Shown piece by piece: positions 3,884 to 47,665 of a stretch of DNA of 47,665 nt (positions within the stretch are counted from its first letter, which is position 1; each line of letters begins with the position of its first letter). The translations under genes and the position numbers were made by a program. Below the pieces are notes generated by a model. It saw only the letters and a program-made list of their open reading frames with translations, ran no database searches and was not told the DNA's origin. Origin of the DNA: Deltaproteobacteria bacterium (GTDB lineage: Bacteria; Myxococcota_A; SURF-8); contig JAKQSH010000367.1 in the NCBI GenBank assembly GCA_029570245.1, positions 1-47,665 on the forward strand, given 5' to 3'.

Positions 3884-4767
3884 TGAAAAAGGCGCTGGCG
3901 GCAATCGGAGCACTCATAATTCTGATTTATATCATCGGCACTTCTTTTGTCACCGTTCACGAAAGCGAAGTGGTGATAATCACGCTTTTCAATCGTCCGA
4001 CACGCATAGTCGATCAGGCCGGTCTGACGCTGAAATGGCCCGACCCCATTCAGACGGCCATCCGCCTTGACCACCGGTTGCAATCGCTTGATTCCAATCT
4101 GGGAGAATATCTGACGCGTGACAAGAAAAACCTGGTGGCGAGCAGCTTCATCATATGGCGCATAGCCGACCCGGAGCGGTTCATTCAGAGCGTGCGCAAC
4201 AGCGCAGGCGCGCAGCGCAGGCTTTCCGACCTTGTAAGCTCGGAAATTGGCGTCGCCATCGGCGAATACCAGTTGAGCGATTTTCTCAATACCGGCAAGG
4301 AAGGCTCGAAGATCGGAGAAATATGCGATAATGTTCTGAAGAAAACCGCACCGCAGTCAATGAATGATTTCGGCGTCGAACTGGTGGATGTGCAGTTGCG
4401 CCGCCTGGGATTCCCCAGCCAGAACCTGCGCTCTGTATACGACCGCATGAGCGCCGAACGTGAGCGCATAGCCAAAAAGTACCGCGCCGAGGGCGAGGAG
4501 GAAGCCTCCAACATCCGTTCGCAGACTGACAAGGAAGTGCGTGAACTGCTGGCGCATGCCTATCGCGAATCACAGATAACGCGCGGGCGCGGGGAGGCCG
4601 AAGCCATCAAAATCTACGCCGAAGCATTCTCGAAGGACCCCGGCTTCTACAAAATGATGCGTACTCTCGAAGCCTACAACAAACTCATGGACGAGAAAAC
4701 CACTCTTATACTCTCGGCGGAGTCTCCGCTGTTCAAATATCTCGAAAATCCGCCGGAGGGAAACTGA
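3883..4767 (+). CDS. hflC: SPFH/band-7 protein, HflC-like
   Basis: The ATG overlaps the upstream stop (TAATGA at 3881-3886). One N-terminal TM helix, then TVHESEVVIITLFNRPTRIV...LKWPDPIQT, and the C-terminal ERERIAKKYRAEGEEEA / RGRGEAEAIKIYAEAF motif typical of HflC. Confidence 0.7.
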   Translation: MKKALAAIGALIILIYIIGTSFVTVHESEVVIITLFNRPTRIVDQAGLTLKWPDPIQTAIRLDHRLQSLDSNLGEYLTRDKKNLVASSFIIWRIADPERFIQSVRNSAGAQRRLSDLVSSEIGVAIGEYQLSDFLNTGKEGSKIGEICDNVLKKTAPQSMNDFGVELVDVQLRRLGFPSQNLRSVYDRMSAERERIAKKYRAEGEEEASNIRSQTDKEVRELLAHAYRESQITRGRGEAEAIKIYAEAFSKDPGFYKMMRTLEAYNKLMDEKTTLILSAESPLFKYLENPPEGN

Positions 4768-4768
4768 A

Positions 4769-5698
4769 ATGAGCGAGGAAAAGACGCTTAAGCACACCTT
4801 CCGCCATGCGCGGAAGATTCTGCTGGCTTCGCTGGCGCTGCTGTTTCTGCTTTATCTGGCCAGCGGCATCTACGCGCTCAAACCGGAACAGACCGGAGTT
4901 CTGATGCGTTTCGGAAAAATTGTGGCCGACGATATTCAGCCCGGCATACATTACCATCTGCCATGGCCTTTTGAATCAGTGTCGCGCCCCAACACCAGGG
5001 AAATCCGCTCACTGGAACTGACTTTCAGAAACGACGAAGCTGCGGAAGAAGACGATTACGAAGGCGGTCAGCTGCTGACCGGCGACGAGAATATTGTTCT
5101 GCTTACGCTGCTGGTTCAGTACACCATAAAATCTCCGGCCGATTACCTGACCGGCTCCGAATACCCTGAATACATCCTGTCCCGCCTGATTCAGGCCGAA
5201 AGCGTCAGATTGTTTGCCAGCATGTACATAGACGACATTCTGACAACCGGGCGCAACAGCATTCAGAGTGAACTGAAGCAGAAAGTGCAGAAATCCTCCG
5301 ATGGAATCGGTCTGGGAATACAGCTGGTCTCGGTGCAGATGCAGGCTGTGGAGCCTCCGCCGCGCGTGGCGCACTCATTCAAAGATGTAGCCTCGGCCCG
5401 CGAAGACATGCACAAAATGCTTCAAAAAGCCAACGGTGAACGCAACCGCCGCCTGCCGGAGGCCCGCGCCCAGGCTGAGCGCTCCATAAAAGAATCCGAA
5501 GCTCAGGCCAGCGAAATGATCGAAATGGCGCGCGGTGACGCCGAGAAGTTTCTGTCGGTATGGGACGAATACCGCAAGGCGCGCAGCGTTACGGCTCATC
5601 GCATATACATGGAAACCGTCGAAAACGTTCTGACGCGGGTAAAGAAGCATATCGTAAACCCCAACGCAGAGCGTAAGGCAGGAAACGGTATGCGCTGA
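4769..5698 (+). CDS. hflK: SPFH/band-7 protein, HflK-like (second HflK-type copy in the operon)
   Basis: SD GGAGGG. It starts 2 nt after the previous stop. TM helix, then YALKPEQTGVLMRFGKIVADDIQPGIHYHLPWPFESV...LTGDENIVLLTLLVQY...ARGDAEKF. Confidence 0.7.
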   Translation: MSEEKTLKHTFRHARKILLASLALLFLLYLASGIYALKPEQTGVLMRFGKIVADDIQPGIHYHLPWPFESVSRPNTREIRSLELTFRNDEAAEEDDYEGGQLLTGDENIVLLTLLVQYTIKSPADYLTGSEYPEYILSRLIQAESVRLFASMYIDDILTTGRNSIQSELKQKVQKSSDGIGLGIQLVSVQMQAVEPPPRVAHSFKDVASAREDMHKMLQKANGERNRRLPEARAQAERSIKESEAQASEMIEMARGDAEKFLSVWDEYRKARSVTAHRIYMETVENVLTRVKKHIVNPNAERKAGNGMR

Positions 5699-27937: not shown

Positions 27938-29623
27938 ATGCCTACTATTGAACGTGAGGACCTGCGCAAAGAAGTACTGGCCGTGGCCAAAGAGCTGGGC
28001 TCGAACCGCTCAAGCCTCATCCCGCTGCTTCAGGCCGTTCAGGCCCGTTACGGTTACGTTTCCGAGCATGCCATGCAGGACATCGCCGACGCCATCGGCA
28101 TTTCACCGGTCGAAGTCCAGTCCGTGGCCACTTTCTATCACCTTATCAATACCGAGCCCACCGGCCGTTTCGTAATCCGTGTTTCGTCGTGCACACCCTG
28201 CATGATGGCCGGAGCCGAACGCATTATGCATCAGTTCGAGAACGAACTGGGCATCGAAGTCGGCGAAACCACCACGGACGGTGTTTTCACTGTCGAATGG
28301 ACCAGCTGCATCGGAATGTGCGATCAGGGTCCCGCCGTGCTGGTGAACGACAGCGTATACACTTTCGTAACACCTGAAAAGGTTTACGCAATCATCACCG
28401 AGTGCCGCAAGGCCTTCTCCGGCCTTGGAGCCAAAGCCAACGGCCTTATTCCCAACAAACGCAATTCCGGTCCCATCCTCGAAGGCGTCAGCGCTCCCAA
28501 CGCCGCGCTCAAAAAGGCTCTGGGAATGAAGCGCGTGGACGTTATCGCCGAACTGCGTGATTCCAACCTGCGCGGTCGCGGCGGAGCGGGCTTCCCGACT
28601 TCGCTCAAATGGCAGCTGGCCGCCGCCGCAAGCGATCCGGTCAAGTTCGTGGTCTGCAACGCCGACGAGGGCGAGCCGGGCACCTTTAAAGACCGTCTGC
28701 TGCTTACCGAATACATCGACACGCTGCTTGAAGGCATGACCATCGGCGGATACGCCATCGGTGCGAACACCGGCGTCATTTACCTGCGTGCAGAATACAC
28801 CTTTATGAAGGCCGCTATCGAAGCCGCCATCGAAAAGCGTCACACCGAAAAGCTGCTGGGCGAAAAAATTCTGGGCAAGGATTTCAACTTCGACATTCAT
28901 CTGCACATGGGCGCCGGCGCTTACGTGTGCGGCGAAGAAACCGCTCTCATCGAGTCCCTCGAAGGCAAACGCGGCGAACCGCGCAACCGTCCGCCTTTCC
29001 CGGTTGATACAGGTCTTAACGGACATCCGACCATCGTCAACAACGTCGAAACCTTCATCGACGCCGCCCTCATCGTCGATCGCGGCGCGGCCTGGTGGAA
29101 ACAGTACGGCACCGAAAAGTCCAGCGGAACCAAGCTCTTCAGCGTTTCCGGCGACTGCGACAAGCCCGGCATATACGAATTTGCCTGGGGCCTCACCGTA
29201 AACGATCTGCTCAAGCAGGTCGGCGGAGAAGGAGCCAAGGCGGTTCAGATCGGCGGCGCTTCCGGCACCTGCGTTCCCGCCAAGGACTTCGGTCGTAAAA
29301 TCTGTTTCGAAGACGTACCCACCGGCGGCTCCATCATGGTGTTCGACCATGATCGCGATATGCTGGAAATAGCTGAAAACTTCCTGGAGTTCTTCGTTGA
29401 AGAGTCCTGTGGAAAATGCGTACCCTGCCGCAAAGGCTGCCCGACTCTGCTGCGCGGAGTAGAAGAACTGCTGGACGGCAAGGGCTCGGTCGCTTATCTC
29501 AACAAGCTCAAGTCGCTGGCCGAAACCATGCAGTGCTCGTGCGTATGCGGTCTTGGACAGTCGGCGCCGAACGCATTCCTTTCAATTATAGCAAACTTCT
29601 CAGACGAAGTTCTGGGCCGTTAG
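27938..29623 (+). CDS. Fused NuoE-like [2Fe-2S] and NuoF-like (FMN/NADH, [4Fe-4S]) flavoprotein subunit of an NAD(P)-linked [FeFe]-hydrogenase (HydC-HydB fusion)
   Basis: NuoE part: LIPLLQAVQARYGYVS, RVSSCTPCMMAG, WTSCIGMCDQGPAVLVND. NuoF part: LRGRGGAGFPTSLKW, VVCNADEGEPGTFKDR, YVCGEETALIESLEG, ESCGKCVPCRKG. There is no C-terminal 2x[4Fe-4S] ferredoxin module. Confidence 0.85.
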   Translation: MPTIEREDLRKEVLAVAKELGSNRSSLIPLLQAVQARYGYVSEHAMQDIADAIGISPVEVQSVATFYHLINTEPTGRFVIRVSSCTPCMMAGAERIMHQFENELGIEVGETTTDGVFTVEWTSCIGMCDQGPAVLVNDSVYTFVTPEKVYAIITECRKAFSGLGAKANGLIPNKRNSGPILEGVSAPNAALKKALGMKRVDVIAELRDSNLRGRGGAGFPTSLKWQLAAAASDPVKFVVCNADEGEPGTFKDRLLLTEYIDTLLEGMTIGGYAIGANTGVIYLRAEYTFMKAAIEAAIEKRHTEKLLGEKILGKDFNFDIHLHMGAGAYVCGEETALIESLEGKRGEPRNRPPFPVDTGLNGHPTIVNNVETFIDAALIVDRGAAWWKQYGTEKSSGTKLFSVSGDCDKPGIYEFAWGLTVNDLLKQVGGEGAKAVQIGGASGTCVPAKDFGRKICFEDVPTGGSIMVFDHDRDMLEIAENFLEFFVEESCGKCVPCRKGCPTLLRGVEELLDGKGSVAYLNKLKSLAETMQCSCVCGLGQSAPNAFLSIIANFSDEVLGR

Positions 29624-29645
29624 ATGCCAATAAAGGAGAATAGCA

Positions 29646-31466
29646 ATGGCTGAAAACATCACCGCCGGCATCGGCGGACAGATCAGTATCAATATCGACG
29701 GCAGGGACCTTAAAGTTCCCTTCAACATGACCATTCTCGAAGCGGCCCGCGCCAACGGAATCCGCATTCCGACCTTGTGTTATCACGAAGACCTGTGCGT
29801 TTCCGGTTCCTGCCGCCTCTGTGTGGTCGAAATCGAAGGACAGCGCAATCTGCAGGCCTCCTGTGCTTATCCGATAACGCAGTCCATCAAGGTAAAAACC
29901 ACATCGCCGCGCGTGCGCCGCGCCAGAAAGAACATCATCGAGCTGCTTCTGGGCGAACACTTCGGTGACTGCTACACCTGCAAACGCAACAAGAATTGCG
30001 AATTGCAGTCTTTAGCCGCCGAATACGGCGTGACCGAGTATACCTTCGGAAAAGAAGAAGGACCCTTCTTCGAAATCCTGGGCGACGGTCCAGTGGTTCG
30101 CGACATGAACAAGTGCGTGCGCTGCTATCGTTGCGTTCGCACCTGTCAGACTTTGCAGGAAGTTTCAGCGCTGGGCAAAATCAATCGTGGCGACGAAACC
30201 TATATCGGCTCCTTCATGGACCTGCCGCTGCTTGAAGGTCTGTGCGTGGCCTGCGGTCAGTGCATCAACCGCTGTCCGACCGGCGCTTTAACCGAGCACG
30301 ATCAGACCGACGAAGTGTGGGCCGCCATCGACGATCCCACCAAGCACGTCGTCATTCAGACCGCCCCGGCTCCGCGCGCTGGCATCGCCGAAGCCTTCGG
30401 CATTCCCGCCGGAAGCGCCGTCACCAAAAAGATGAACAGCGCCATAAAGATGATGGGATTCGACAAGGTCTTCGACACCAACTTCACCGCCGACCTCACC
30501 ATCATGGAAGAAGGAACGGAACTGCTGCTCAGACTGAAAGCAGCTCTGGTTGACGGCAACAAGGATGTCAAGCTGCCGCAGATAACCTCCTGTTCGCCCG
30601 GCTGGGTCAAGTTCGCCGAGCAGGTTTCACCCAAGCTGCTGGATCATATTTCCAGTTGCAAGAGCCCGCAGCAGATGTTCGGCGCGGTCATCAAAACCTA
30701 TTACGCCGAACTGGCCGGAATCGACCCGAAAGACATCGTCAGCGTTTCTCTCATGCCCTGCACCGCCAAGAAGTTCGAGTGCGAGCGCCCCGAAATGTGC
30801 GACTCCGGTTATCAGGATGTCGATTACGCCCTGACCTCACGTGAGCTGGCCAAGATGATCAAGGAAGCCGGAATAGACCTTATGGCTTGCCCGGATTCGG
30901 AATTCGACGATCCGGTCGGTCTTGGTTCCGGCGCCGGCATCATTTTCGGAGCCACCGGCGGCGTTATGGAAGCGGCCATCCGCACCGCATACGAAATCGT
31001 CACCGGCAGAGAAATTCCTTTCGAGAATCTCGAAGTCAAACCGGTGCGCGGCATGGACGGCATCCGTTCCGCCGAGTTGCCTATAACCGGCGCTGTTGAA
31101 GCCTGGAAATTCCTCGAGGGCGCAACGCTGAAAGTCATGGTTGCGCATGGTCTGGCCAATGCCCGCAAAGTGCTCGAACAGCTCGCAGCCGGCGAACTGA
31201 GCGATTATCACTTCATCGAAATCATGTGCTGCCCCGGCGGTTGCCTGGGCGGCGGTGGACAGCCGATTCCGACCAACCCGGCCATCCGCAAGGCCCGCGC
31301 CGAAGCCATCTATCAGGAGGACCGCATCATGCCCATTCGCAAGTCGCACAAAAACCCGGTCATCGACAAAATTTACAAGGAATTCCTGACTGAAGGTCCC
31401 TGTGGACACAAGAGCCACAAGCTGCTGCATACGCATTACAAAAAACGCGGAACGCAGATCGTATAA
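29646..31466 (+). CDS. hydA: [FeFe]-hydrogenase catalytic subunit (M3-type: 2Fe-2S, His-ligated 4Fe-4S, 2x[4Fe-4S], H-domain, small-subunit-like tail)
   Basis: SD AAGGAG. N-terminal CYHEDLCVSGSCRLC, HFGDCYTCKRNKNCELQ, CVRCYRCVRTC and CVACGQCINRCP. H-cluster motifs are L1 TSCSPGW (variant of TSCCPxW), L2 MPCTAKKFE, and L3 EIMCCPGGCLGGGGQP. Confidence 0.9.
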   Translation: MAENITAGIGGQISINIDGRDLKVPFNMTILEAARANGIRIPTLCYHEDLCVSGSCRLCVVEIEGQRNLQASCAYPITQSIKVKTTSPRVRRARKNIIELLLGEHFGDCYTCKRNKNCELQSLAAEYGVTEYTFGKEEGPFFEILGDGPVVRDMNKCVRCYRCVRTCQTLQEVSALGKINRGDETYIGSFMDLPLLEGLCVACGQCINRCPTGALTEHDQTDEVWAAIDDPTKHVVIQTAPAPRAGIAEAFGIPAGSAVTKKMNSAIKMMGFDKVFDTNFTADLTIMEEGTELLLRLKAALVDGNKDVKLPQITSCSPGWVKFAEQVSPKLLDHISSCKSPQQMFGAVIKTYYAELAGIDPKDIVSVSLMPCTAKKFECERPEMCDSGYQDVDYALTSRELAKMIKEAGIDLMACPDSEFDDPVGLGSGAGIIFGATGGVMEAAIRTAYEIVTGREIPFENLEVKPVRGMDGIRSAELPITGAVEAWKFLEGATLKVMVAHGLANARKVLEQLAAGELSDYHFIEIMCCPGGCLGGGGQPIPTNPAIRKARAEAIYQEDRIMPIRKSHKNPVIDKIYKEFLTEGPCGHKSHKLLHTHYKKRGTQIV

Positions 31467-38844: not shown

Positions 38845-40245
38845 ATGTTTAAAAAAGAACAGCTATGGAAGAGGATACTGTTTCTGGGCGATTTTCTGAT
38901 CGTGGCCCTTTCGGTTTATATCGCCCTTATTCTGCGTTTTTCCTTCGACCCCTACCAGTGGTTCAGCAGCGCCTTCGATCCTTTCAGGGTCTTCACCGGC
39001 GCTTCCACAATTTCCATTGCGGTGGTCATGCTGGTTTTTTCGCTTACTGAAATGTACCGCATCGACGTTAACCTGAACCGATTGAAGCAGATAATACGAC
39101 TTATGATGGCGCTTCTGGCTTCGATGATAATTCTGTCTTTCGTGTTCTACTGGATTCCGCATTATCGCCTCCTGCGGCTGGGTCAGATTTACATGTTCGT
39201 CTCGATGTTCGTGGTGCTGGCCGCCTGGCGTTACCAGTTTTTCACACGCGTGTTTCCGCGTCTGCCGCGCAAGCGTGTACTCATAGTCGGCGCAGGTGAC
39301 AGCGGACGGATGATGATGGACGCCTTCAACACGCATCGCGACTCGCTTTACGAACCGGTCTGTTTTCTTGACGACAATCCGCAGCTGCACGGAGAAGAAA
39401 TAAGCGGGCTCAAGGTCCTGGGCGATTCCGACAAATTGGAATCATGCATCGACAGCCTGAACATCGACACAATAGTGGTGGCGGTGAAGGACAAAATCGG
39501 AGAGAAGCTCACCCGCAACCTGTTGAACTGCAAAATCAAGGGAAAACACATTGTAGACGCCTCCAGCGTTTACAGGGAAATTTCCGGCAAAATCCCGATT
39601 CTGCACATGCAGGATCAGTGGTTCATTTTCGGCCCCAGTTTTCAGCTGGCCGCCAACGTATGGACGCGACGTTTCCAGCGCGTTTTCGACATCTGCGTCA
39701 GTGTCTTCATGCTGTTGCTGTGCGCACCCCTCATGCTGCTGGCTTATCTGGCCGTCAGGCTTTCGTCTCCCGGCCCCGCAATTTTCAAACAGGAACGCGT
39801 CGGTCTGAACGAAAAACCCTACATGCTGTACAAGTTCAGAACCATGGTGCAGGACGCAGAAAAAAACACCGGAGCCGTATGGGCGCAACAGAACGACCCG
39901 CGCGTTACCGGATTAGGGCGCTTTCTGCGCCGCAGCCGCATCGACGAGCTTCCGCAGCTGTGGAATGTGCTTAAAGGCGACATGAGTTTCATCGGTCCGC
40001 GTCCCGAAAGGGCAGAGTTCGTCGAAAAACTCAAGCTGCGCATTCCGTATTATTCGCTGCGCTTCATTATGAAACCCGGCCTGACCGGCTGGGCGCAGGT
40101 TAATTACCGTTACGGCGCCAGCGAGGAAGACGCGCTGGAAAAACTGAGATACGAACTTTACTACCTTCAGGAAATGTCTATTTTCCTGAACCTGATAATA
40201 ATGGTGCGCACCGTTCAGACTGTGCTGTTTCATCGTGGGTCGTAA
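38845..40245 (+). CDS. Polyprenyl (undecaprenyl)-phosphate glycosylphosphotransferase, the initiating sugar transferase for exopolysaccharide or O-antigen (WbaP/EpsB-like)
   Basis: N-terminal TM helices and a Rossmann-like RVLIVGAGDSG. C-terminal bacterial sugar-transferase domain: PAIFKQERVGLNEKPYMLYKFRTM, DPRVTGLGRFLRRSRIDELPQLWNVLKGDMSFIGPRPER. Confidence 0.85.
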   Translation: MFKKEQLWKRILFLGDFLIVALSVYIALILRFSFDPYQWFSSAFDPFRVFTGASTISIAVVMLVFSLTEMYRIDVNLNRLKQIIRLMMALLASMIILSFVFYWIPHYRLLRLGQIYMFVSMFVVLAAWRYQFFTRVFPRLPRKRVLIVGAGDSGRMMMDAFNTHRDSLYEPVCFLDDNPQLHGEEISGLKVLGDSDKLESCIDSLNIDTIVVAVKDKIGEKLTRNLLNCKIKGKHIVDASSVYREISGKIPILHMQDQWFIFGPSFQLAANVWTRRFQRVFDICVSVFMLLLCAPLMLLAYLAVRLSSPGPAIFKQERVGLNEKPYMLYKFRTMVQDAEKNTGAVWAQQNDPRVTGLGRFLRRSRIDELPQLWNVLKGDMSFIGPRPERAEFVEKLKLRIPYYSLRFIMKPGLTGWAQVNYRYGASEEDALEKLRYELYYLQEMSIFLNLIIMVRTVQTVLFHRGS

Positions 40246-40319
40246 TGCATCGGTTGACAGATGACCCTCAAATGTGTTATTGAGCCGGTTCAGGGCGAAT
40301 ATGAAAGCAGGAAACACTG

Positions 40320-40907
40320 ATGGAAAATTCCACGCAGATAATCATAAAAAGATATGCCAACCGCAAACTCTACGATACCAGTCGCAGCCGTTACGTCACG
40401 CTTGAGGAAATCTCTCAGATGGTGCACGACGGGCACGACGTGAAAATACTCGACCATAAATCCAAAAAAGACATCACTTCCATTACGCTGGCGCAGATCA
40501 TCTTCGAAAAAGAAAAGAAGCAGCGCATACTGCCGTCTTCAACGCTTATCGACACCATACGCTCCGGCGGCGAAGCCATTTCGGGCTTCATCCAGAAAAC
40601 CGTCAAGTTCGGCAGACTCAAGGAAGATGTTGAGAAAACCAGCGAAACATTCGAGCGGCTCCTGAGTTCCAAGGTAATTTCCCGTGACGAATGGGTAAAA
40701 CTGCTGCACGATCTTTACGACGCCAGCTTCCAGAATCTTGAATCCCTGCAGAAAAGAGTGGACGAGAAAATCAAGTCCGCCGCCGGACAGGTTTCCAACC
40801 TGGGACTGATGCGCCGCGAAGTGGACGCCATTAAAGCCCAGGTGGCGCTGCTTGAAGAAAAAATAGATTCCCTCGAAAAAACGATCAGAGAAAACAGCCC
40901 GGAATAA
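40320..40907 (+). CDS. phaR: PhaR-type polyhydroxyalkanoate synthesis regulator
   Basis: IIKRYANRKLYDTSRSRYVTLEEISQMVHDGHDVKILDHKSKKDITSITLAQIIFEKE matches the PHB/PHA accumulation regulator DNA-binding domain. The C-terminus is coiled-coil. Confidence 0.8.
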   Translation: MENSTQIIIKRYANRKLYDTSRSRYVTLEEISQMVHDGHDVKILDHKSKKDITSITLAQIIFEKEKKQRILPSSTLIDTIRSGGEAISGFIQKTVKFGRLKEDVEKTSETFERLLSSKVISRDEWVKLLHDLYDASFQNLESLQKRVDEKIKSAAGQVSNLGLMRREVDAIKAQVALLEEKIDSLEKTIRENSPE

Positions 40908-40922
40908 TCAAATCTCACGCTC

Positions 40923-41549
40923 TCAGTCGCTTTCGATACTTTCGAGCAGCTGCGGCAGTTCGGCCAGACTGTTGATGTGCCAGTCTCCACCGCAGTGACG
41001 GTCAGGCCCGACGATTACGCAGCGGATTCCGCCGTTCCGCGCCGTCATTACATCGAATTCCGAATCCCCAACCAGAACGCATTCCCGCGCTTCCACCGCC
41101 AGACGATCCAGAATGGTTTCCACCACAATCGGGTAGGGCTTGGGCCAGGCCAGCGTGCGGGCATGAACGACATATTCGAAATACTGCGCCAGACCGAAAT
41201 GCTCCAGCACTGCAGGCGTGGAGTCGCCGCGATTGGTGGCGATGGCCAGCCGGTAACGCCCGGCGCACCATGCAACGGCCTCGGCGGCGTAGGGTTTCAA
41301 CTCCAGGTGGTTCAGATGCCCGCCCATGTCGTAAACTTCTTCCTTGAATTTGCGGGCCAGTTCGCGCTTGGCCGGATCGGGAATGAGTTTCTCCAGAATG
41401 CCTTTTTCGGAGCCGGTGTAAAAATACTCCTGCTTATCGACAGGAAAAGGTTCGTCTATGTATTCGAAAAGACGGCGGAAGAAAATCAGTATGGCGTCGG
41501 CGGAGGAAATCAGCGTTTCATCCAGATCGAAAATAACGGCTTTGAGCAT
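40923..41549 (-). CDS. HAD-superfamily phosphatase (phosphoglycolate phosphatase-like)
   Basis: ATG 41549 has SD AAAGGA; the track ORF extends to 41627. Motif I is AVIFDLDETL, motif II is IATNR, and motif III is KPYP....VGDSEFDVMTARNGG. Confidence 0.8.
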   Translation of the reverse strand: MLKAVIFDLDETLISSADAILIFFRRLFEYIDEPFPVDKQEYFYTGSEKGILEKLIPDPAKRELARKFKEEVYDMGGHLNHLELKPYAAEAVAWCAGRYRLAIATNRGDSTPAVLEHFGLAQYFEYVVHARTLAWPKPYPIVVETILDRLAVEARECVLVGDSEFDVMTARNGGIRCVIVGPDRHCGGDWHINSLAELPQLLESIESD

Positions 41550-41650
41550 ATGGCGTCCTTTCACTGCGAGTGCGGCTCGCGCGGAAATCTTAATGGTCTG
41601 TTTAACAGATTTGACTGATTGTGGCAAATATGGACTGAGCAGAATAAATA

Positions 41651-41680
41651 TTCGACATATATTTATGGCAAAGCTATAAT
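41651..41680 (+). promoter_or_regulatory. Sigma70-type promoter candidate P1 upstream of the Abi locus
   Basis: TTCGAC (41651-41656), 18-nt spacer, TATAAT (41675-41680). The module is an imperfect direct repeat of P2 (AAATATT..AC / GGCAA.GC / TATA.T at an offset of 54-60 nt). Confidence 0.4.
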
Positions 41681-41712
41681 CAAAAAAAGATGTGAGAGAA
41701 AATATTTTACAC

Positions 41713-41740
41713 TTGACAGAGGCAATGCAACAGCTATACT
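41713..41740 (+). promoter_or_regulatory. Near-consensus sigma70-type promoter P2 driving the small RNA and the Abi gene
   Basis: TTGACA (41713-41718), 16-nt spacer, TATACT (41735-41740). Confidence 0.6.
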
Positions 41741-41746
41741 TAAATA

Positions 41747-41808
41747 CAGCATAGTCGCCAAGCCTCTATTCCTTCGGGAACACGCTCAAATGTGGCGGCT
41801 TTTTTTTT
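41747..41808 (+). ncRNA. Candidate structured small RNA of about 60 nt ending in a U9 run, immediately 5' of the Abi_2/HEPN gene (putative type III antitoxin-like or attenuator RNA)
   Basis: The outer 8-bp stem pairs AGTCGCCA (41753-41760) with TGGCGGCT (41793-41800). It encloses a UUCC-UUCG-GGAA hairpin (cUUCGg tetraloop, about 41770-41781) and is followed by T9 (41800-41808). The TSS is inferred from P2 only. Confidence 0.45.
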
Positions 41809-41818
41809 GGGATTTGAC

Positions 41819-42733
41819 GTGAACGGCAGACTCGCTTATACAAAACCAGCTCTGACAACAGAGGCACAGGCCGAATTACTGCTGAGAAGAGGTCTGGTGG
41901 CAGACCGCAGCATTCTGATTGAACGTCTTTCACACGTCAACTATTACAGATTGAGCGCCTACTGGTATCCGTTCAAATTGCAGGATGACAATTTCAAGGA
42001 AGGCACATCCTTCGAACAGATATGGCGGCGTTACACTTTCGACAGACAGATACGTCTTCTTTTGATGGATGTGATTGAGAGAATTGAAGTTTCCGTAAGA
42101 ACCATCATGGTAAATGTGTTTGCACTGAAATTCGGGGCTTTCGGTCATCTGGAAGCCGCTAATTTTTCATCAGAACGAACTGGTGAAAATAATGACAGGC
42201 ATACCAAATTCCTGGAAAAACTCAGAGAAGAAGCAAAACGCAGTCAGGATGAATTCATAAGGCATTCCAGGATGACTTACTGCAAATGGCCCGATCTTCC
42301 TTTGTGGAAAGCCGCAGAAATAATGAGTTTTGGTAACATGTTCACCATGTTCAGAATGCTCGAACATAACCTGAAGAAAGAAATATCTTCAAGATATGAT
42401 CTTCCAGCTGTTGTTTTTGAAAGCTGGCTCGATTCTCTGAATTATATCCGCAATGTCTGTGCCCATCACGGCAGGCTCTGGAACAGAATTCTGGCTATAA
42501 AACCTAAAATACCTAACAGGAAGAATCGACCGGATTTTCATCATCCAATCAGTCTGGAAAATAACCGGATTTTCTCTCTGCTTACTGCATCAAAATACAT
42601 GCTTGATATCATAGCCCATCAAAGCAAATGGAAAAACAGGCTTATTTGCCTGCTGGAAGAGTATCCAGACATACCGATTAATGAAATGGGATTTCCTGAA
42701 AGATGGGAACAGATTCCGATCTGGATCGTATGA
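41819..42733 (+). CDS. Abi_2 family (AbiD/AbiF-like) abortive-infection protein with a HEPN R-x4-H motif
   Basis: YTKPALTTEAQAELLLRRGL...VNYYRLSAYWYPF... is the typical Abi_2 N-terminus. The HEPN motif is RNVCAH (R at 42449-42451, H at 42464-42466) in LNYIRNVCAHHGRLWNR. The track ORF starts at GTG 41792 inside the U-run, so GTG 41819 (or TTG 41807) is preferred. The start is uncertain. Confidence 0.8.
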   Translation: MNGRLAYTKPALTTEAQAELLLRRGLVADRSILIERLSHVNYYRLSAYWYPFKLQDDNFKEGTSFEQIWRRYTFDRQIRLLLMDVIERIEVSVRTIMVNVFALKFGAFGHLEAANFSSERTGENNDRHTKFLEKLREEAKRSQDEFIRHSRMTYCKWPDLPLWKAAEIMSFGNMFTMFRMLEHNLKKEISSRYDLPAVVFESWLDSLNYIRNVCAHHGRLWNRILAIKPKIPNRKNRPDFHHPISLENNRIFSLLTASKYMLDIIAHQSKWKNRLICLLEEYPDIPINEMGFPERWEQIPIWIV

Positions 42734-42755
42734 TTATTTTCCTACACGTCTATTT

Positions 42756-43538
42756 CTACACGTCCCGGCCCTGAAGCAGTTTGCGAAGTTTATCGACGGC
42801 CTGTTTGTGCAGCTGCGAAATGCGCGACTCGGAAAGGTCCAGCACCTGCCCGATTTCCTTGTAGTTGAGTTCCGAGTAATAATAAAGCGACAGCACCAGA
42901 TACAGCTTTTCCGGCAGTTCACGCAGAACAGTCGTCAGCTGTTCTATTATCGACTCCTGTTCGAGACGTTGGAAGGGTTCGCTGTGCTCCTCTGACGAAT
43001 AGTAATAATTGCGGGCGCGGTCTTCTCCGATATTCTGCTGAAAGTCCTCAAGGTCAAGAAAAACGTACTGCTGCGTTTCGTTCAGCAGTTCGTGAAGTTC
43101 ATCAATGCTGCACGCCAGACGTTCTGAAAGCTCCTCTTCGGTGGGCGGTCTGCCGTTTTCTGCTTCGATGGCTCGCGCGGCGTCCTCGATGCGGTTGGCC
43201 CGTTTGCGGTTCGAGCGCGAAAGCACGTCGTAGCTGCGCAATTCGTCAATGATCGCTCCGCGCACGCGCAGTTCGAGGTAGCGCCGGAAGCTTTTTCCGC
43301 GCGAGGGGTCGTATTTTTCGACGGCGTCCATCAGACCCAGAACGCCGGTAGAAACAAGATCGTCCAGAGCTATGCTGGAAGGCAGGCGGTTGTGAATGTG
43401 CAGGGCGATGCGTTTGACCTGCGGCAGATGATCGACTATGAGACGCTCACGGTAAGCGCGATCAGAGCGCTTGAGAGGTATTTCAAGGTCTTCCTTTTCG
43501 ACCTCGAATTCTTTTATGATGTCGTTTGCGTCTTCCAC
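42756..43538 (-). CDS. fliA: Flagellar sigma factor FliA (sigma-28)
   Basis: Region 2 is DDLVSTGVLGLMDAVEKYDPSRGKSFRRYLELRVRGAIIDELR. Region 4 is LSLYYYSELNYKEIGQVLDLSESRISQLHKQAVDKLR. GTG 43538 with AGGGA 6 nt upstream is preferred. The track ORF start (43634) would overlap flhG by 50 nt. Confidence 0.85.
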   Translation of the reverse strand: MEDANDIIKEFEVEKEDLEIPLKRSDRAYRERLIVDHLPQVKRIALHIHNRLPSSIALDDLVSTGVLGLMDAVEKYDPSRGKSFRRYLELRVRGAIIDELRSYDVLSRSNRKRANRIEDAARAIEAENGRPPTEEELSERLACSIDELHELLNETQQYVFLDLEDFQQNIGEDRARNYYYSSEEHSEPFQRLEQESIIEQLTTVLRELPEKLYLVLSLYYYSELNYKEIGQVLDLSESRISQLHKQAVDKLRKLLQGRDV

Positions 43539-43584
43539 TTCAATTCCCTTTGAAGACGGTTGTTTATACGGAAAGTGTCCGGCG

Positions 43585-44403
43585 CTATTCGGCCAGACGG
43601 TTCCACAAAAACAGGTTGTCCGGCACCTGATCACGCTTTTTAAGCAGCTCTGCGGCGATCTTCTTCAATTCGCGCGAAGCGCCGGAGCTGGGAAATTTCT
43701 CGACAAACGGCACCTGGCTGTTTACGGCTTCATGCACTTTTTCGTCGCGCGGCATGAAACCCAGAAAATCTATGGCGACTTCAATGAAGTTGTCTGCGAT
43801 ATCGCACAGCGTCTGATAAACCGAAAGCGCATTCTGCTCACTTGCAGCCTGGTTGACTACAAGCTGAAAGCGCTTCACCGCATATTGACGGTTCAGAACT
43901 TTAATGATGGCATAGGCGTCGGCCAGCGATGTAGGTTCGGGCGTGGCGATTATGATGATGTAAGAAGCCGCCGATGCGAAATAGAGCACATGCGACGAAA
44001 TGCCGGCTGCCGTGTCGATGAGGATTATATCGTATTTGTCCGAAAGAGTTTCGAGTTGCGCCACAACCTGCGACTGCTCTTCGGGTTTAAGATCGGCCAT
44101 GGCCGAAATGCCGGAAGCCGCAGGCAGAATGCGTATGCCGCCGGGTCCGTTGGTTATTACCTCTTCGATGGTTTTCTCGCCCGAAATCAGATGCGAAAAA
44201 TTGAATTTCGGCCGGATATTGAAAAGGATGTCCACGTTGGCCAGACCAAGGTCGCCGTCTATGATGAGCGTGCGTTTGCCGTGGTTGACGAATTCAACTC
44301 CAAGATTGACGCAGAGGTTTGTTTTTCCCACTCCACCCTTGCCGGATGTGACGGCTACCACCAGGGGAGCTTTGCGTCTGGCGACTGTGCCGGAACTGCT
44401 CAA
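43585..44403 (-). CDS. flhG: Flagellar number/placement ATPase FlhG (MinD-like, FleN/YlxH)
   Basis: TTG start with SD AAGGAGA. Deviant Walker A VTSGKGGVGKTN, and IILIDTAAG. It sits between flhF and fliA. Confidence 0.85.
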   Translation of the reverse strand: MSSSGTVARRKAPLVVAVTSGKGGVGKTNLCVNLGVEFVNHGKRTLIIDGDLGLANVDILFNIRPKFNFSHLISGEKTIEEVITNGPGGIRILPAASGISAMADLKPEEQSQVVAQLETLSDKYDIILIDTAAGISSHVLYFASAASYIIIIATPEPTSLADAYAIIKVLNRQYAVKRFQLVVNQAASEQNALSVYQTLCDIADNFIEVAIDFLGFMPRDEKVHEAVNSQVPFVEKFPSSGASRELKKIAAELLKKRDQVPDNLFLWNRLAE

Positions 44404-44464
44404 GATTTCATCTCCTTAATAAAGTATCCGAATGATTAATATCCTTCTTAATCATGCAATATTA

Positions 44465-45685
44465 TTACATCAAAAGCAATTCCGCCAGTTTCGAACTGCT
44501 GGCTGTCAGAAGATCGTCGGGCACACGCTGTCCGACTCCGAAGTATGAAAACGGTTTTTCGGACTGGAAGTACGTATTCAACAGCCCGCCGTATGTCAGA
44601 CTTTCGTCGAGTTTGGTGAAAATGAGATTCGAGAAGCCGCGTCCCAGATAAATTTCTGTAAAAGCCTGCAGATCACGTTCTTTGGTGTTGGCCGAAAGCA
44701 CCAGATGTTTTTCAAGATCGGGAACGACTGAAATCATGGTGAAAAGCCTGTCCATGGCGGCCTGATCGTGCGGATTCTGCCCGGCGGTGTCGATAAGAAT
44801 GACCTGCTTGGAAGAAAGCACGCGATGAACCTTGCGCAGTTCGAGGTCGTTGGTCGCCATCAGCAGCGGAACGTCGATGGTGGTGGCGAATTTGCGCAGC
44901 TGATCGACCGCGCCGACACGGAAGTTATCCAGCACGATAAGACCAACAGAAACCTCCCTTGCCGTAAGTTCCGTTGCGATTTTGGCGATGGTGGTCGTTT
45001 TTCCGACGCCGGTCGGACCGATCAGCGCCACATTGCGTTTTCTGCCGCGCTTGAGTCCCACCAGAGCGCCGTCACAACGCACATTGCTGTTTATAAGCCC
45101 CGCCAGATACTCGCGCACGCGCTCGCGATTGCCCAGTTGTGAAGGCTTGAAGCGCCGCGAAACACGCCAGATCATTTCGGAGGTGATTTCACGGTTGACG
45201 CCGATGTCCAGAAAATAACGCGCCAGATCGCGCAGTTCGTCCGAGAGTTCTCCGTCTTCGGGAGCGGTGCCCTCCAGATCGTCAACCAGCAGATCGGTAA
45301 GCTCCAGCGCCTCTGCCGCAGGCGGCGAAGGCGGTTCGCGGTATTCGGGCTGCGCAGGCAGCACACTCCGAGCTCTGGACGGCCTGGGTTCGGGGTGCGG
45401 AGCCGGACGCGGAGGAGTGTATTCAACTCCGGTGACTTTCGAATGACCGGCATAAAGCCGTTCAAGAATTTTCTCCGGCGAAAGCTTCAGTTGCGGCTCG
45501 TTCTGCACCGGAACGTCGTCCTCTTCTTCGGGCGGCATGGCGGTGACTTCAAAACGCTTCGAACGCGGGACGGTGGGCCCCTTGTTTTCGTTGACGCTGA
45601 TAATCATGGCTTTCGAGCCCAGTTCCGCCTTGATTCTGCTCAGGCATTCACTGACGGTTTCGGCCTGATACTGTCTGATCTCCAT
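44465..45685 (-). CDS. flhF: Flagellar biosynthesis SRP-type GTPase FlhF
   Basis: G1 is ALIGPTGVGKTTTIAKIA, G3 is LIDTAGQ, and ...FTKLDES (TKxD). A proline-rich linker lies in the N-terminal half. It follows flhA. Confidence 0.9.
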   Translation of the reverse strand: MEIRQYQAETVSECLSRIKAELGSKAMIISVNENKGPTVPRSKRFEVTAMPPEEEDDVPVQNEPQLKLSPEKILERLYAGHSKVTGVEYTPPRPAPHPEPRPSRARSVLPAQPEYREPPSPPAAEALELTDLLVDDLEGTAPEDGELSDELRDLARYFLDIGVNREITSEMIWRVSRRFKPSQLGNRERVREYLAGLINSNVRCDGALVGLKRGRKRNVALIGPTGVGKTTTIAKIATELTAREVSVGLIVLDNFRVGAVDQLRKFATTIDVPLLMATNDLELRKVHRVLSSKQVILIDTAGQNPHDQAAMDRLFTMISVVPDLEKHLVLSANTKERDLQAFTEIYLGRGFSNLIFTKLDESLTYGGLLNTYFQSEKPFSYFGVGQRVPDDLLTASSSKLAELLLM

Positions 45686-45695
45686 GTTTTTCTCC

Positions 45696-47665
45696 TCAGA
45701 TGGCTACCGTTCCAACGAGTTTTATTTCTACGCCCGGATCGACTTCGCGGTGAGAAATGACCGCCAGATCGGGCATGAATCTTGTTACAAAATTACGGAT
45801 GGCGCGGCGGATTTCGGGCGACACCAGCAGCACCGGAGTGCCCGCGCCCAGACTGGCTTCCTGAATGCGTTTTTCAAGGCCGTTGAGTATGCGATGGGCC
45901 TGGTCCGGCGACAGCGCGGCCTGAATGTCGTCGTTTTCGAACTGCTGCGAGCTTCTGAAAATGTCTTCGATGCTGCGGTCGAAGGTGATTGCATAAATGC
46001 GGTTGTCGTGGGCTTTGAACTGCCCGGTTATGGAACGCGCCTGCCGCTGGCGCACCAGCTCGGTCAGAACTTCCGGGTTGCGCGTCTGCCCGACATAATC
46101 GGCTATGGTTTCGATTATGCCGCGCAGGTCGCGGATGGAGATGTTCTCTTTAAGCAGGTTTTTCACCACCCGCAGCAGTTCTCCCATGGAAAAGCGTTCG
46201 GGTATGAGTTCTTCAACCAGCTTGCCGTTATGTTTTGACAGAATATCAAGCAGCTGCTGCAACTCCTGACGGCCAACCAGTTCGTGTGCATGCTTCTTGA
46301 TAAGCTCCGAAAGATGCGTGGCTATTACCGTAGAGCCGTCAACCACGGTATACCCCAGCGCCTCGGCGCGTTCGCGGTTGGCCTCGCTGATCCAGCGCGC
46401 CGGCAGCCCGAAGGCCGGTTCTATGGTATCGACGCCTTCGATTTCCTTGTCCACGTCACCCGGATTCATGGCCAGAAAACGATCTTTCATTACGGAATGA
46501 GAAGCTATTTCCATGCCGCGCAAAAGCACACGATAGCTCGACGGAGCCAGTTGCAGATTGTCACGGATATGCACCGGCGGCACGATGATGCCCAGCGATG
46601 CGGCGAACTGGCGCCGCAGTGCGGTTATGCGTTCAAGCAGTTCGCCGCCGCGATTGCGGTCAACCAGCCCGATGAGGTCGTAACCGACTTCGATGCTTAA
46701 GAGGTCGATCTGAAGCATCTGCTCGATGCGCTCTGCTTCCAGCTCGTGCGGAGGAACAGCCGCAGCGCCGCTTTCCGCAGCGCCGGTGCCGTCTTTTGCC
46801 GAACCTTCAAGGCTTTCCTCGGCAGACGGCATGTTTTTACGGCTGAAATACGCAGCGGTAATCATCACCGCCGAGAGCATGAGGAAAATTATGGTCGGCA
46901 TGCCTGGCATGAGCGCCAGCAGAGCAAGAACGACGCCGACCACCATAAGCGCACGCCAGTATGCGAAAAGCTGCCTGAAAACATCTTCGCCCATATGAAC
47001 TTCGGTTGTGGTGCGCGTAATTACGATACCGGCGGCGGTTGAAATGACCAGGGCGGGAATCTGCGACACCAGACCGTCGCCGACCGTCAGAATGGTATAT
47101 GTGGCGGCGGCATTGGCGACCGGCAGCCCCTGCTGGGCCACTCCTATGATGAAACCGCCGACAATGTTAATGGCGGTAATGATAAGTCCGGCTATGGCGT
47201 CGCCGCGCACGAACTTGGATGCACCGTCCATGGCGCCGTAAAAATCGGCCTCGTGTTCAATTTCACGGCGACGGGCTCTGGCCTGGTCTTCGCGGATGAT
47301 TCCTGCATTAAGATCGGCGTCTATGGCCATCTGTTTTCCGGGCATGGAATCCAGCACAAAGCGTGCGCCGACTTCGGCCACGCGTGTAGCGCCTTTTGTA
47401 ATAACTACAAAGTTGATTGCAATGAGAATCAGAAAGATGATGATTCCAACTACAAAGTTACCTCCGACAACGAACTGTCCGAAAGATTTTATGACGTCTC
47501 CGGCAGCGTCTTCTCCGGTGTGTCCCTGAAGCAGAATAAGACGCGTCGAGGCTACGTTAAGGCCCAGACGGAAAAGAGTTATTATGAGCAGAATGCTGGG
47601 AAACACCGAGAATTCCAGCGGTTTCTTGACGTATATCGAATCCAGCAGAATCACCAGGCCTATGG
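45696..47665 (-). CDS. flhA: Flagellar type III export gate protein FlhA. The 5' end lies beyond the right edge of the window.
   Basis: ...IGLVILLDSIYVKKPLEFSVFPSILLIITLFRLGLNVASTRLIL..., FVVITKGATRVAEVGARFVLDSMPGKQMAIDADLNAG, and FYGAMDGASKFVRGDAIAG. The M at 47654 in the track is an internal GTG (Val), and the reading frame stays open to 47665. Confidence 0.95.
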   Translation of the reverse strand, partial: IGLVILLDSIYVKKPLEFSVFPSILLIITLFRLGLNVASTRLILLQGHTGEDAAGDVIKSFGQFVVGGNFVVGIIIFLILIAINFVVITKGATRVAEVGARFVLDSMPGKQMAIDADLNAGIIREDQARARRREIEHEADFYGAMDGASKFVRGDAIAGLIITAINIVGGFIIGVAQQGLPVANAAATYTILTVGDGLVSQIPALVISTAAGIVITRTTTEVHMGEDVFRQLFAYWRALMVVGVVLALLALMPGMPTIIFLMLSAVMITAAYFSRKNMPSAEESLEGSAKDGTGAAESGAAAVPPHELEAERIEQMLQIDLLSIEVGYDLIGLVDRNRGGELLERITALRRQFAASLGIIVPPVHIRDNLQLAPSSYRVLLRGMEIASHSVMKDRFLAMNPGDVDKEIEGVDTIEPAFGLPARWISEANRERAEALGYTVVDGSTVIATHLSELIKKHAHELVGRQELQQLLDILSKHNGKLVEELIPERFSMGELLRVVKNLLKENISIRDLRGIIETIADYVGQTRNPEVLTELVRQRQARSITGQFKAHDNRIYAITFDRSIEDIFRSSQQFENDDIQAALSPDQAHRILNGLEKRIQEASLGAGTPVLLVSPEIRRAIRNFVTRFMPDLAVISHREVDPGVEIKLVGTVAI

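Follow-up and report, generated by a model that had tools for sequence, protein, structure and literature searches.

An AbiF–abiF RNA module with a type III-like toxin–antitoxin layout beside fliA in an uncultured flagellated bacterium

What is the short structured RNA that precedes an Abi_2-type gene in contig JAKQSH010000367.1, and what would it do to the protein encoded behind it? The contig, from an assembly labeled Deltaproteobacteria bacterium, was analyzed as one stretch of 47,665 nucleotides (nt), here called the window. A first-pass annotation of the DNA letters had proposed a type III-like layout, in which a structured RNA ending in a terminator is followed by an Abi_2/HEPN gene, and matches of the RNA to the Rfam family RF03085 and to an independent covariance model bear this out. 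The locus is best read as an AbiF–abiF RNA (AbiFr) module, that is, a type III-like toxin–antitoxin or abortive-infection system that was horizontally acquired, and we give this reading a probability of about 85%.

The gene, abiF (41819–42733, plus strand), starts with GTG and encodes a predicted HEPN ribonuclease (RNase) toxin of the Abi_2/AbiD-F type, with one Abi_2 domain in 304 amino acids. Its open reading frame (ORF) matches Pfam Abi_2 (PF07751) with 200.6 bits (cut-off 25.6; E 3.5e-59) and the PADLOC AbiD profile with an E value of 1.3e-76, and the product can be placed, as first annotated, in the AbiD/F (Abi_2) family of HEPN proteins. It also matches chain A of PDB entry 8VZ6 (‘Abi family protein’) with an E value of 1e-52, residues 1–302 aligning to residues 1–299. 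According to PMC12737573, this entry is the AbiF of a Prevotellaceae bacterium (PbAbiF), solved with its noncoding RNA (ncRNA) by Zilberzwige-Tal et al. The PbAbiF reference used here is the 8VZ6 chain A copy read from its alignment with the window protein; the two are 37% identical end to end, and the product of the native PbAbiF locus, on metagenome contig L088, matches that copy at 100% identity. The HEPN motif of the window protein, R211-N-V-C-A-H216 (42449–42466, plus strand), aligns R211 and H216 with R210 and H215 of PbAbiF, and its R, N, C, A and H do not vary across the 25 homologues of the protein alignment. Mutating both residues of PbAbiF (R210A+H215A) leaves it inactive, as stated in PMC12373285 with reference to Zilberzwige-Tal et al. 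By analogy with the characterized homologues, Clostridioides difficile AbiFCd and PbAbiF, window AbiF would be an active RNase and toxic.

Upstream of abiF, the top Rfam match in the region is abiF RNA (RF03085; 41754–41800, 27.4 bits, E 0.027), with model positions 1–37 all aligned. A leave-one-out covariance model, built without the window sequence, finds the element at 41745–41809 with 60.5 bits (E 1.4e-14) and one internal mismatch, and this is its sole significant match in 47.6 kb. Together with the minimum free energy (MFE) fold, these matches point to an AbiFr-type antitoxin RNA of about 55–61 nt (41748–41808), which like all its parts lies on the plus strand. Helix P1 (41753–41800) closes the structure by pairing 41753–41759 with 41794–41800 and, optionally, A41760 with U41793; in the family it has 7 bp, is 99.4% paired and shows compensatory changes in six of seven pairs. 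Helix P2 (41761–41786), which is supported by covariation, pairs AGC (41761–41763) with GCU (41784–41786) and encloses a conserved CUCU (41764–41767). P3 (41767–41782), an apical hairpin that family comparison shows to be variable, pairs U41767 with A41782 and UUCC (41769–41772) with GGAA (41777–41780) around a UUCG loop (41773–41776). Between helices P2 and P1 lies a single-stranded junction, CAAAUGU (41787–41793). The conserved RNA strands AAGCCUCU and GCUCAAAU are present along with both helices. The first-pass annotation had located the outer stem (41753–41760 with 41793–41800), the hairpin (41769–41780), nine U residues (41800–41808) and the RNVCAH motif correctly, and the predicted MFE fold is exactly the one it described, which is also the consensus structure of the family.

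The family itself was examined in 80 genome loci encoding AbiF homologues at 37–52% identity, whose labels include Verrucomicrobiota, Planctomycetota, Kiritimatiellota, Hydrogenedentes, Syntrophales, Leptospira, Chloroflexi, Actinobacteria and Bacteroidetes. On inspection by eye, almost every one of these loci shows the same RNA element directly upstream of the gene, and a covariance model made from the aligned copies finds the motif immediately upstream and on the gene’s strand in 80/80. Seventy distinct RNA copies were aligned on a structure that combines a 7-bp helix P1, a 3-bp helix P2 and the P3 base. Standard pairs fill 97.7% of the cells in this alignment, as against 30–44% when the 3′ partners are slid by 1–3 columns, and compensatory changes on both sides occur in 10 of the 14 pairs of the three-helix structure. 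On four of five covariation measures none of 500 shuffles reaches the observed value, and on the fifth one of 500 does. For instance, the helix P2 pair in alignment columns 19 and 52 is AU in 27 copies, CG in 17, GU in 14, GC in 3 and UA in 1. Both protein and RNA belong to their families, and the RNA is conserved and covaries within a conserved layout.

The helices differ in how freely they vary. P3 ranges from a bare loop (0 bp) to 9 bp across the 70 RNAs, and its apical loops are for the most part stable tetraloops, with GCAA in 14 copies, UUCG in 9 and GAAA in 8. Judged by this comparison, the window RNA is a P3-expanded member of the abiF/AbiFr family, and its cUUCGg hairpin is a common variable decoration, not the sign of a new RNA. 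Since P3 is the sole hypervariable segment and AbiF has been proposed as the evolutionary ancestor of Cas13 (PMC12165695, PMC12737573), the RNA could be imagined as a proto-crRNA-like guide through which AbiF, in the manner of Cas13, would find complementary phage RNA. Such a role is extremely unlikely: the variable segment is paired with itself and capped by a tetraloop (GCAA, UUCG or GAAA), so it is not a free spacer, the motif occurs once in the window outside any repeat array, and the protein has a single HEPN domain. Neither tandem repeats nor a CRISPR-like or ToxI-like array were found within 39000–45000.

The junction CAAAUGU is identical to the junction of PbAbiF RNA and would be the toxin-inhibiting segment. 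PMC12737573 describes positions C32 and U38; the distance from the C to the last U of the window junction is 6 nt, which fits that spacing, and C41787 and U41793 would be the equivalents of C32 and U38 if the RNA starts about 6 nt before helix P1. The RNA core, CGCCAAGCCUCU … GCUCAAAUGUG, is likewise identical in the two RNAs, and the earlier suggestion that the locus might hold a new RNA–protein pair is not sustained, the same core lying upstream of a structurally solved AbiF. Across the family, the junction and the first helix P2 pair change together in discrete classes (alignment columns 18–21 and 52–59), namely AAGC...UCAAAUGU, GGGC...UAUCUCUC, GCGC...G(A/U)AAUUC and CGGC...ACACU, which could be RNA–toxin specificity classes.

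The RNA appears to have its own promoter. Promoter P2 (TTGACA-16-TATACT; 41713–41740, plus strand) scores 11/12 in the promoter scan and stands at a position conserved in the family: a recognizable sigma70-type promoter lies near the model start in 36 of 76 loci, its −10 element ending 3–4 nt before that start in 32 of the 36, and in the window the −10 element of promoter P2 ends 4 nt ahead of it. From this position relative to the model start, the transcription start site (TSS) would lie at about 41747–41748, within the conserved CAGCA. Promoter P1 (TCGACA-17-TATAAT; 41652–41680, plus strand) is an extra sigma70-like site that also scores 11/12. In none of 20,000 shuffles of the 197-nt intergenic region do two sites reach 11/12 or better. 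The two promoter modules of the first-pass annotation stand; their description as imperfect direct repeats does not, because the best local alignment between them (score 19) is equaled in 8–9% of shuffles, also with the hexamers held fixed. Their 61-nt spacing is, moreover, too short for a lost promoter-plus-RNA unit (about 99 nt, as in L007). A second promoter (at least 10/12, 70–140 nt upstream) is found in 1 of 76 loci, and promoter P1 is therefore specific to this locus and not a feature of the family.

The number of RNA units differs among loci. L007, a Kiritimatiellae metagenome-assembled genome (MAG), carries three tandem promoter–abiF RNA–U-tract units about 99 nt apart (45–305) before a single abiF, and several Prevotellaceae loci (L093–L095, L166) carry two abiF RNA motifs. 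Speculatively, promoter P1 may raise RNA dosage as the tandem units do elsewhere. Just after its −10 element lies an A-run (41682–41688), A7 in the window and in L081 and A8 in L085 and L087, which is the sole variation within the cassette (the intergenic elements with abiF) among metagenome contigs of the same organism. On the minus strand, a weak antisense promoter-like site within the 5′ region of abiF (TTGACG-17-CAGAAT, 9/12, 41940–41912) points across the abiF RNA towards the neighboring HAD gene, and the promoter scan of the intergenic region found no sigma70-like promoter for that gene.

The 3′ end of the RNA bears on how the toxin gene is expressed. A U9 tract (41800–41808, plus strand) follows helix P1 immediately, and 68 of the 70 family RNAs have at least six T in the 9 nt after this helix. 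At the level of sequence, the 8-bp helix P1 and the U9 tract form an intrinsic-terminator-like element between the RNA and the toxin gene, and the closing stem of the RNA is predicted to double as the terminator stem. As to the start codon, the Met of 24 aligned homologues falls 1–2 residues ahead of a conserved Y-T-K-P, which favors GTG 41819; residue 1 of its product aligns to residue 1 of 8VZ6_A. The two start codons proposed at first are both present in the DNA; GTG 41819 holds up in this alignment, whereas TTG 41807 lies within the U-tract, lacks a Shine–Dalgarno (SD) sequence and overshoots the N-terminus of every homologue. The same faults apply to GTG 41792, which lies within the helix P1 stem. 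A weak SD-like GGGA (41809–41812, plus strand) stands 6 nt upstream of GTG 41819, where the homologues have GGGG or GGAGG directly after the U-tract. From the 3′ end of helix P1 to the start codon the family mostly has 21–30 nt, with 22 the commonest distance; the window has 18 nt. With closing stem, U-tract, SD and start codon so compact, the toxin gene has no room for a promoter of its own, and since GTG 41819 comes just 10 nt after the U-tract, it can soundly be inferred that abiF expression would depend on terminator read-through, as first annotated.

A terminator-like helix and U-tract that abut the coding sequence (CDS) throughout the family could also mean that the RNA only attenuates transcription in cis, as a riboswitch-like leader that restricts abiF expression, and has no trans antitoxin role; whether it works in cis or in trans was reportedly left undecided in the original description of RF03085. 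The C. difficile study, too, reports a cis effect on transcription (PMC12373285). As a full account of the RNA, attenuation is nevertheless improbable: in two characterized homologues the RNA binds the protein and neutralizes it in trans (PMC12373285; 8VZ6 as summarized in PMC12737573), the window RNA shares its core and junction with one of these, PbAbiF RNA, and arrays of 2–3 tandem promoter–RNA–terminator units such as that of L007 suit a raised RNA dosage, not attenuation.

Several observations weigh against the locus as a working AbiF–abiF RNA module. At 27.4 bits the window RNA falls short of the Rfam gathering score of 37. This score is a curated cut-off and not a structural feature, and the deficit arises because 16 nt occupy the place of the model’s 7-nt loop. 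When 20 homologous loci were tested, 5 reached the gathering score and 15 clear homologues stayed below it; the RF03085 model, which has no P3 helix, detects too few RNAs of this clade. The MFE stability of the window RNA is unremarkable (z = −0.62), single-sequence thermodynamics was set aside as uninformative evidence for the RNA, and the predicted structure is supported comparatively, not thermodynamically. The consensus terminator scan did not call helix P1 with the U9 tract, since the enclosed ‘loop’ is beyond the limit of the scan. Translation in the window may be poor because of the weak GGGA and the GTG start. Finally, the cassette lies outside any defense island, among flagellar and housekeeping genes.

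These neighbors are a HAD hydrolase gene (40923–41549) and fliA (42756–43538), both on the minus strand. GC content is about 0.40–0.42 over 41450–42800 and 0.50–0.62 in the flanks, in agreement with the AT-rich single-gene insertion between the HAD gene and fliA that had been proposed. The low GC fits horizontal acquisition, and the locus is consistent with a single-copy AbiF module acquired between these two genes. Just after the abiF stop lies a 12-nt direct duplication of the fliA 3′ end (TTCCTACACGTC / TTTCTACACGTC; 42739–42764), its copies 14 nt apart and the second holding the stop and last codons of fliA on the minus strand. Possibly this duplication is a scar that marks where the acquired cassette ends on the right; its left edge showed no counterpart. 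The closest FliA relatives (69% identity; L082–L084) yielded no empty site for delimiting the insertion, as they have different genes downstream of fliA and lack the HAD gene, and the contigs of the same species all carry the cassette.

An AT-rich cassette isolated among flagellar genes, with a weak SD, a GTG start and an N-terminus 4 residues longer than the consensus, might be taken for a decaying remnant of horizontal transfer that has no present function. We consider decay highly improbable: the unbroken ORF retains every one of the 46 columns that are invariant in the family alignment, the RNA reaches 60.5 bits with a single internal mismatch in the model built from its relatives, and contigs from three JGI metagenome samples are 99.9–100% identical over the cassette. 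The uncultured host bacterium is flagellated and probably anaerobic, as suggested by an NADH-dependent [FeFe] hydrogenase of group A6 (NF040763, E 2e-246) that follows a NuoE/NuoF-like fusion in 27938–31466. Its closest named FliA relatives are MAGs labeled Myxococcales, Bdellovibrionota or Deltaproteobacteria, at no more than 51% identity. The host had been thought unusual for such a system, a view that the family does not support: homologous modules occur in many phyla, and this host is not exceptional among them.

By analogy with the characterized homologues, the AbiF–abiF RNA module would work as follows. Promoter P2, probably reinforced by promoter P1, would initiate transcription at about 41748, and the nascent RNA would fold into helices P1, P2 and P3. 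Most polymerases would stop at helix P1 and the U9 tract, leaving an abundant RNA of about 60 nt, and a minority would read through into the abiF CDS, so that AbiF would be made rarely. As the CDS starts 10 nt past the U-tract, each toxin mRNA would carry one antitoxin motif in its 5′ untranslated region (UTR). The AbiF HEPN RNase, presumably a dimer with R211 and H216 as catalytic residues, would be held inactive by direct binding of one RNA per monomer, the single-stranded CAAAUGU junction sitting at the active site. When a phage infects or host transcription is shut off, the labile RNA would be depleted and the RNase set free, and the cell would arrest; an anti-phage role of this kind is likewise suggested by the homologues.

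In this large P3-expanded clade the closing helix of the antitoxin is also the terminator stem and lies about 9 nt from the SD, which makes autoregulation conceivable. AbiF bound to the nascent or 5′-UTR motif could feed back on its own synthesis, either with more termination through a stabilized helix P1 or with less translation through an occluded SD, and the locus would then be a self-titrating RNA–protein circuit and more than a matter of RNA excess. We regard such a circuit as tentative and on balance unlikely. The junction classes of the relatives, CAAAUGU, AUCUCUC, RAAUUC and ACACU, could be mutually orthogonal RNA–toxin specificity groups, and promoter P1 would then be a dosage adaptation equivalent to the 2–3 tandem RNA units of other loci.

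A few further signals were recorded around these elements. A terminator-like hairpin on the sense strand within the abiF CDS (42136–42166; GGCUUUCGGUCAUCUGGAAGCC then GCUAAUUUUU) is probably due to chance in AT-rich DNA; a weak RAGATH-16 match (20 bits, E 0.88) overlaps it, and the region has 7 terminator-like sites where 1.6 are expected. The weak Rfam matches within the CDS (RAGATH-16, HrrF and sR4) are all far under their gathering scores and were judged to be chance. The same judgment was made of a candidate second abiF RNA at the window end (47641–47665; 12–13 bits, E 0.45–0.72), a partial match to the first 25 model positions that is truncated by the end of the window and falls within a large minus-strand ORF (45696–47654; FlhA-like by synteny). 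In the Chloroflexi MAG locus L022, an unrelated c-di-AMP riboswitch (RF00379, 79.5 bits; 4728–4858) lies about 0.8 kb downstream of abiF.

The system, the RNA, the structure and the link to Cas13 have already been published (PMC12373285, PMC12737573, PMC12165695), and what the first-pass annotation said of AbiF loci, a conserved neutralizing ncRNA and a proposed ancestry of Cas13, agrees with these papers. The locus leaves the understanding of how AbiF works unchanged. It adds one more natural AbiF–AbiFr pair, from an uncultured and probably anaerobic host, and the comparison shows that an apical helix P3, variable in form, is widespread in the family, that the compact promoter–RNA–terminator–SD layout, with its fixed promoter distance, holds across the 80 loci, whose labels span many phyla, and that RF03085 at its gathering score misses most of these RNAs. 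This is useful for the annotation of defense systems and for picking compact RNA–protein pairs for engineering.

Among the closest known systems is PbAbiF–AbiFr. Both loci encode a single-HEPN Abi_2 protein with conserved catalytic R and H and have one RNA motif per gene, with the identical core and junction described above, a U-tract straight after helix P1 and, about 20 nt downstream, the start codon. Upstream of its ATG, the native PbAbiF locus reads ACCCGCCAAGCCUCU-CAACGAU-GCUCAAAUGUGCGGGU-CGUUUUAUUUUU, followed by 6 nt (UAUACA), and the window counterpart reads AGUCGCCAAGCCUCU-AUUCCUUCGGGAACAC-GCUCAAAUGUGGCGGCU-UUUUUUUU, followed by 10 nt and GTG. The two differ in the apical part, which is a 16-nt P3 hairpin with a UUCG loop in the window and a 7-nt loop in PbAbiFr, in the sequence of helix P1 (AGUCGCC/GGCGGCU in the window and ACCCGC/GCGGGU in PbAbiFr), in the second upstream promoter of the window and in the host, a probable flagellated anaerobe as opposed to a Prevotellaceae bacterium. 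The Rfam family RF03085 shares with the window RNA a helix P1 of 6–7 bp, an unpaired A, a 3-bp helix P2 (AGC/GCU), conserved CUCU and CAAAU stretches and its location upstream of abiF, whereas its model is without the P3 of the window RNA.

The AbiFCd–RCd22 pair of C. difficile shows what such a locus can do. AbiFCd is toxic, and its RNA neutralizes it in cis and in trans by direct RNA–protein binding; rapid cDNA-end amplification (5′/3′ RACE) and RNA sequencing reveal one promoter, a dominant terminated short RNA and a minor read-through mRNA (PMC12373285). Both loci encode an Abi_2 HEPN toxin (motif RNQCAH in C. difficile, RNVCAH in the window) behind an ncRNA with the abiF motif, and by analogy the window locus would also transcribe both from one promoter, with most transcripts ending ahead of the CDS and a few reading through, and its toxin would be neutralized by RNA in type III-like fashion. 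However, RCd22 holds two abiF motifs in one transcript with a separate terminator hairpin (PMC12373285), whereas the window has one motif whose closing stem is the predicted terminator stem. The distance from the TSS to the start codon is 168 nt to ATG for RCd22 and about 71 nt to GTG in the window, and AbiFCd–RCd22 lies within a prophage lysis module, whereas the window locus is chromosomal and not in a prophage.

With the classical type III systems (ToxIN, AbiQ–antiQ, CptIN and TenpIN), the window locus shares the order of RNA antitoxin gene, terminator and RNase toxin gene and, by analogy, an RNA excess set by termination and a role in abortive infection. The ToxN/AbiQ toxin fold is unrelated to HEPN, and in the classical systems the toxin processes an antitoxin made of tandem repeats, whereas the window RNA is a single structured motif. 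The locus would work like a type III system but is not a member of the ToxIN, CptIN or TenpIN families. Cas13 (type VI, including Cas13an and Cas13e) has two HEPN domains in one polypeptide, as opposed to the one of window AbiF, which would act as a dimer, and the window has neither CRISPR array nor spacer and shows no evidence of guide function. What the window locus and Cas13 have in common is HEPN RNase chemistry based on an Rx4H motif, together with control of the activity by a partner RNA, which in the window would apply by analogy.

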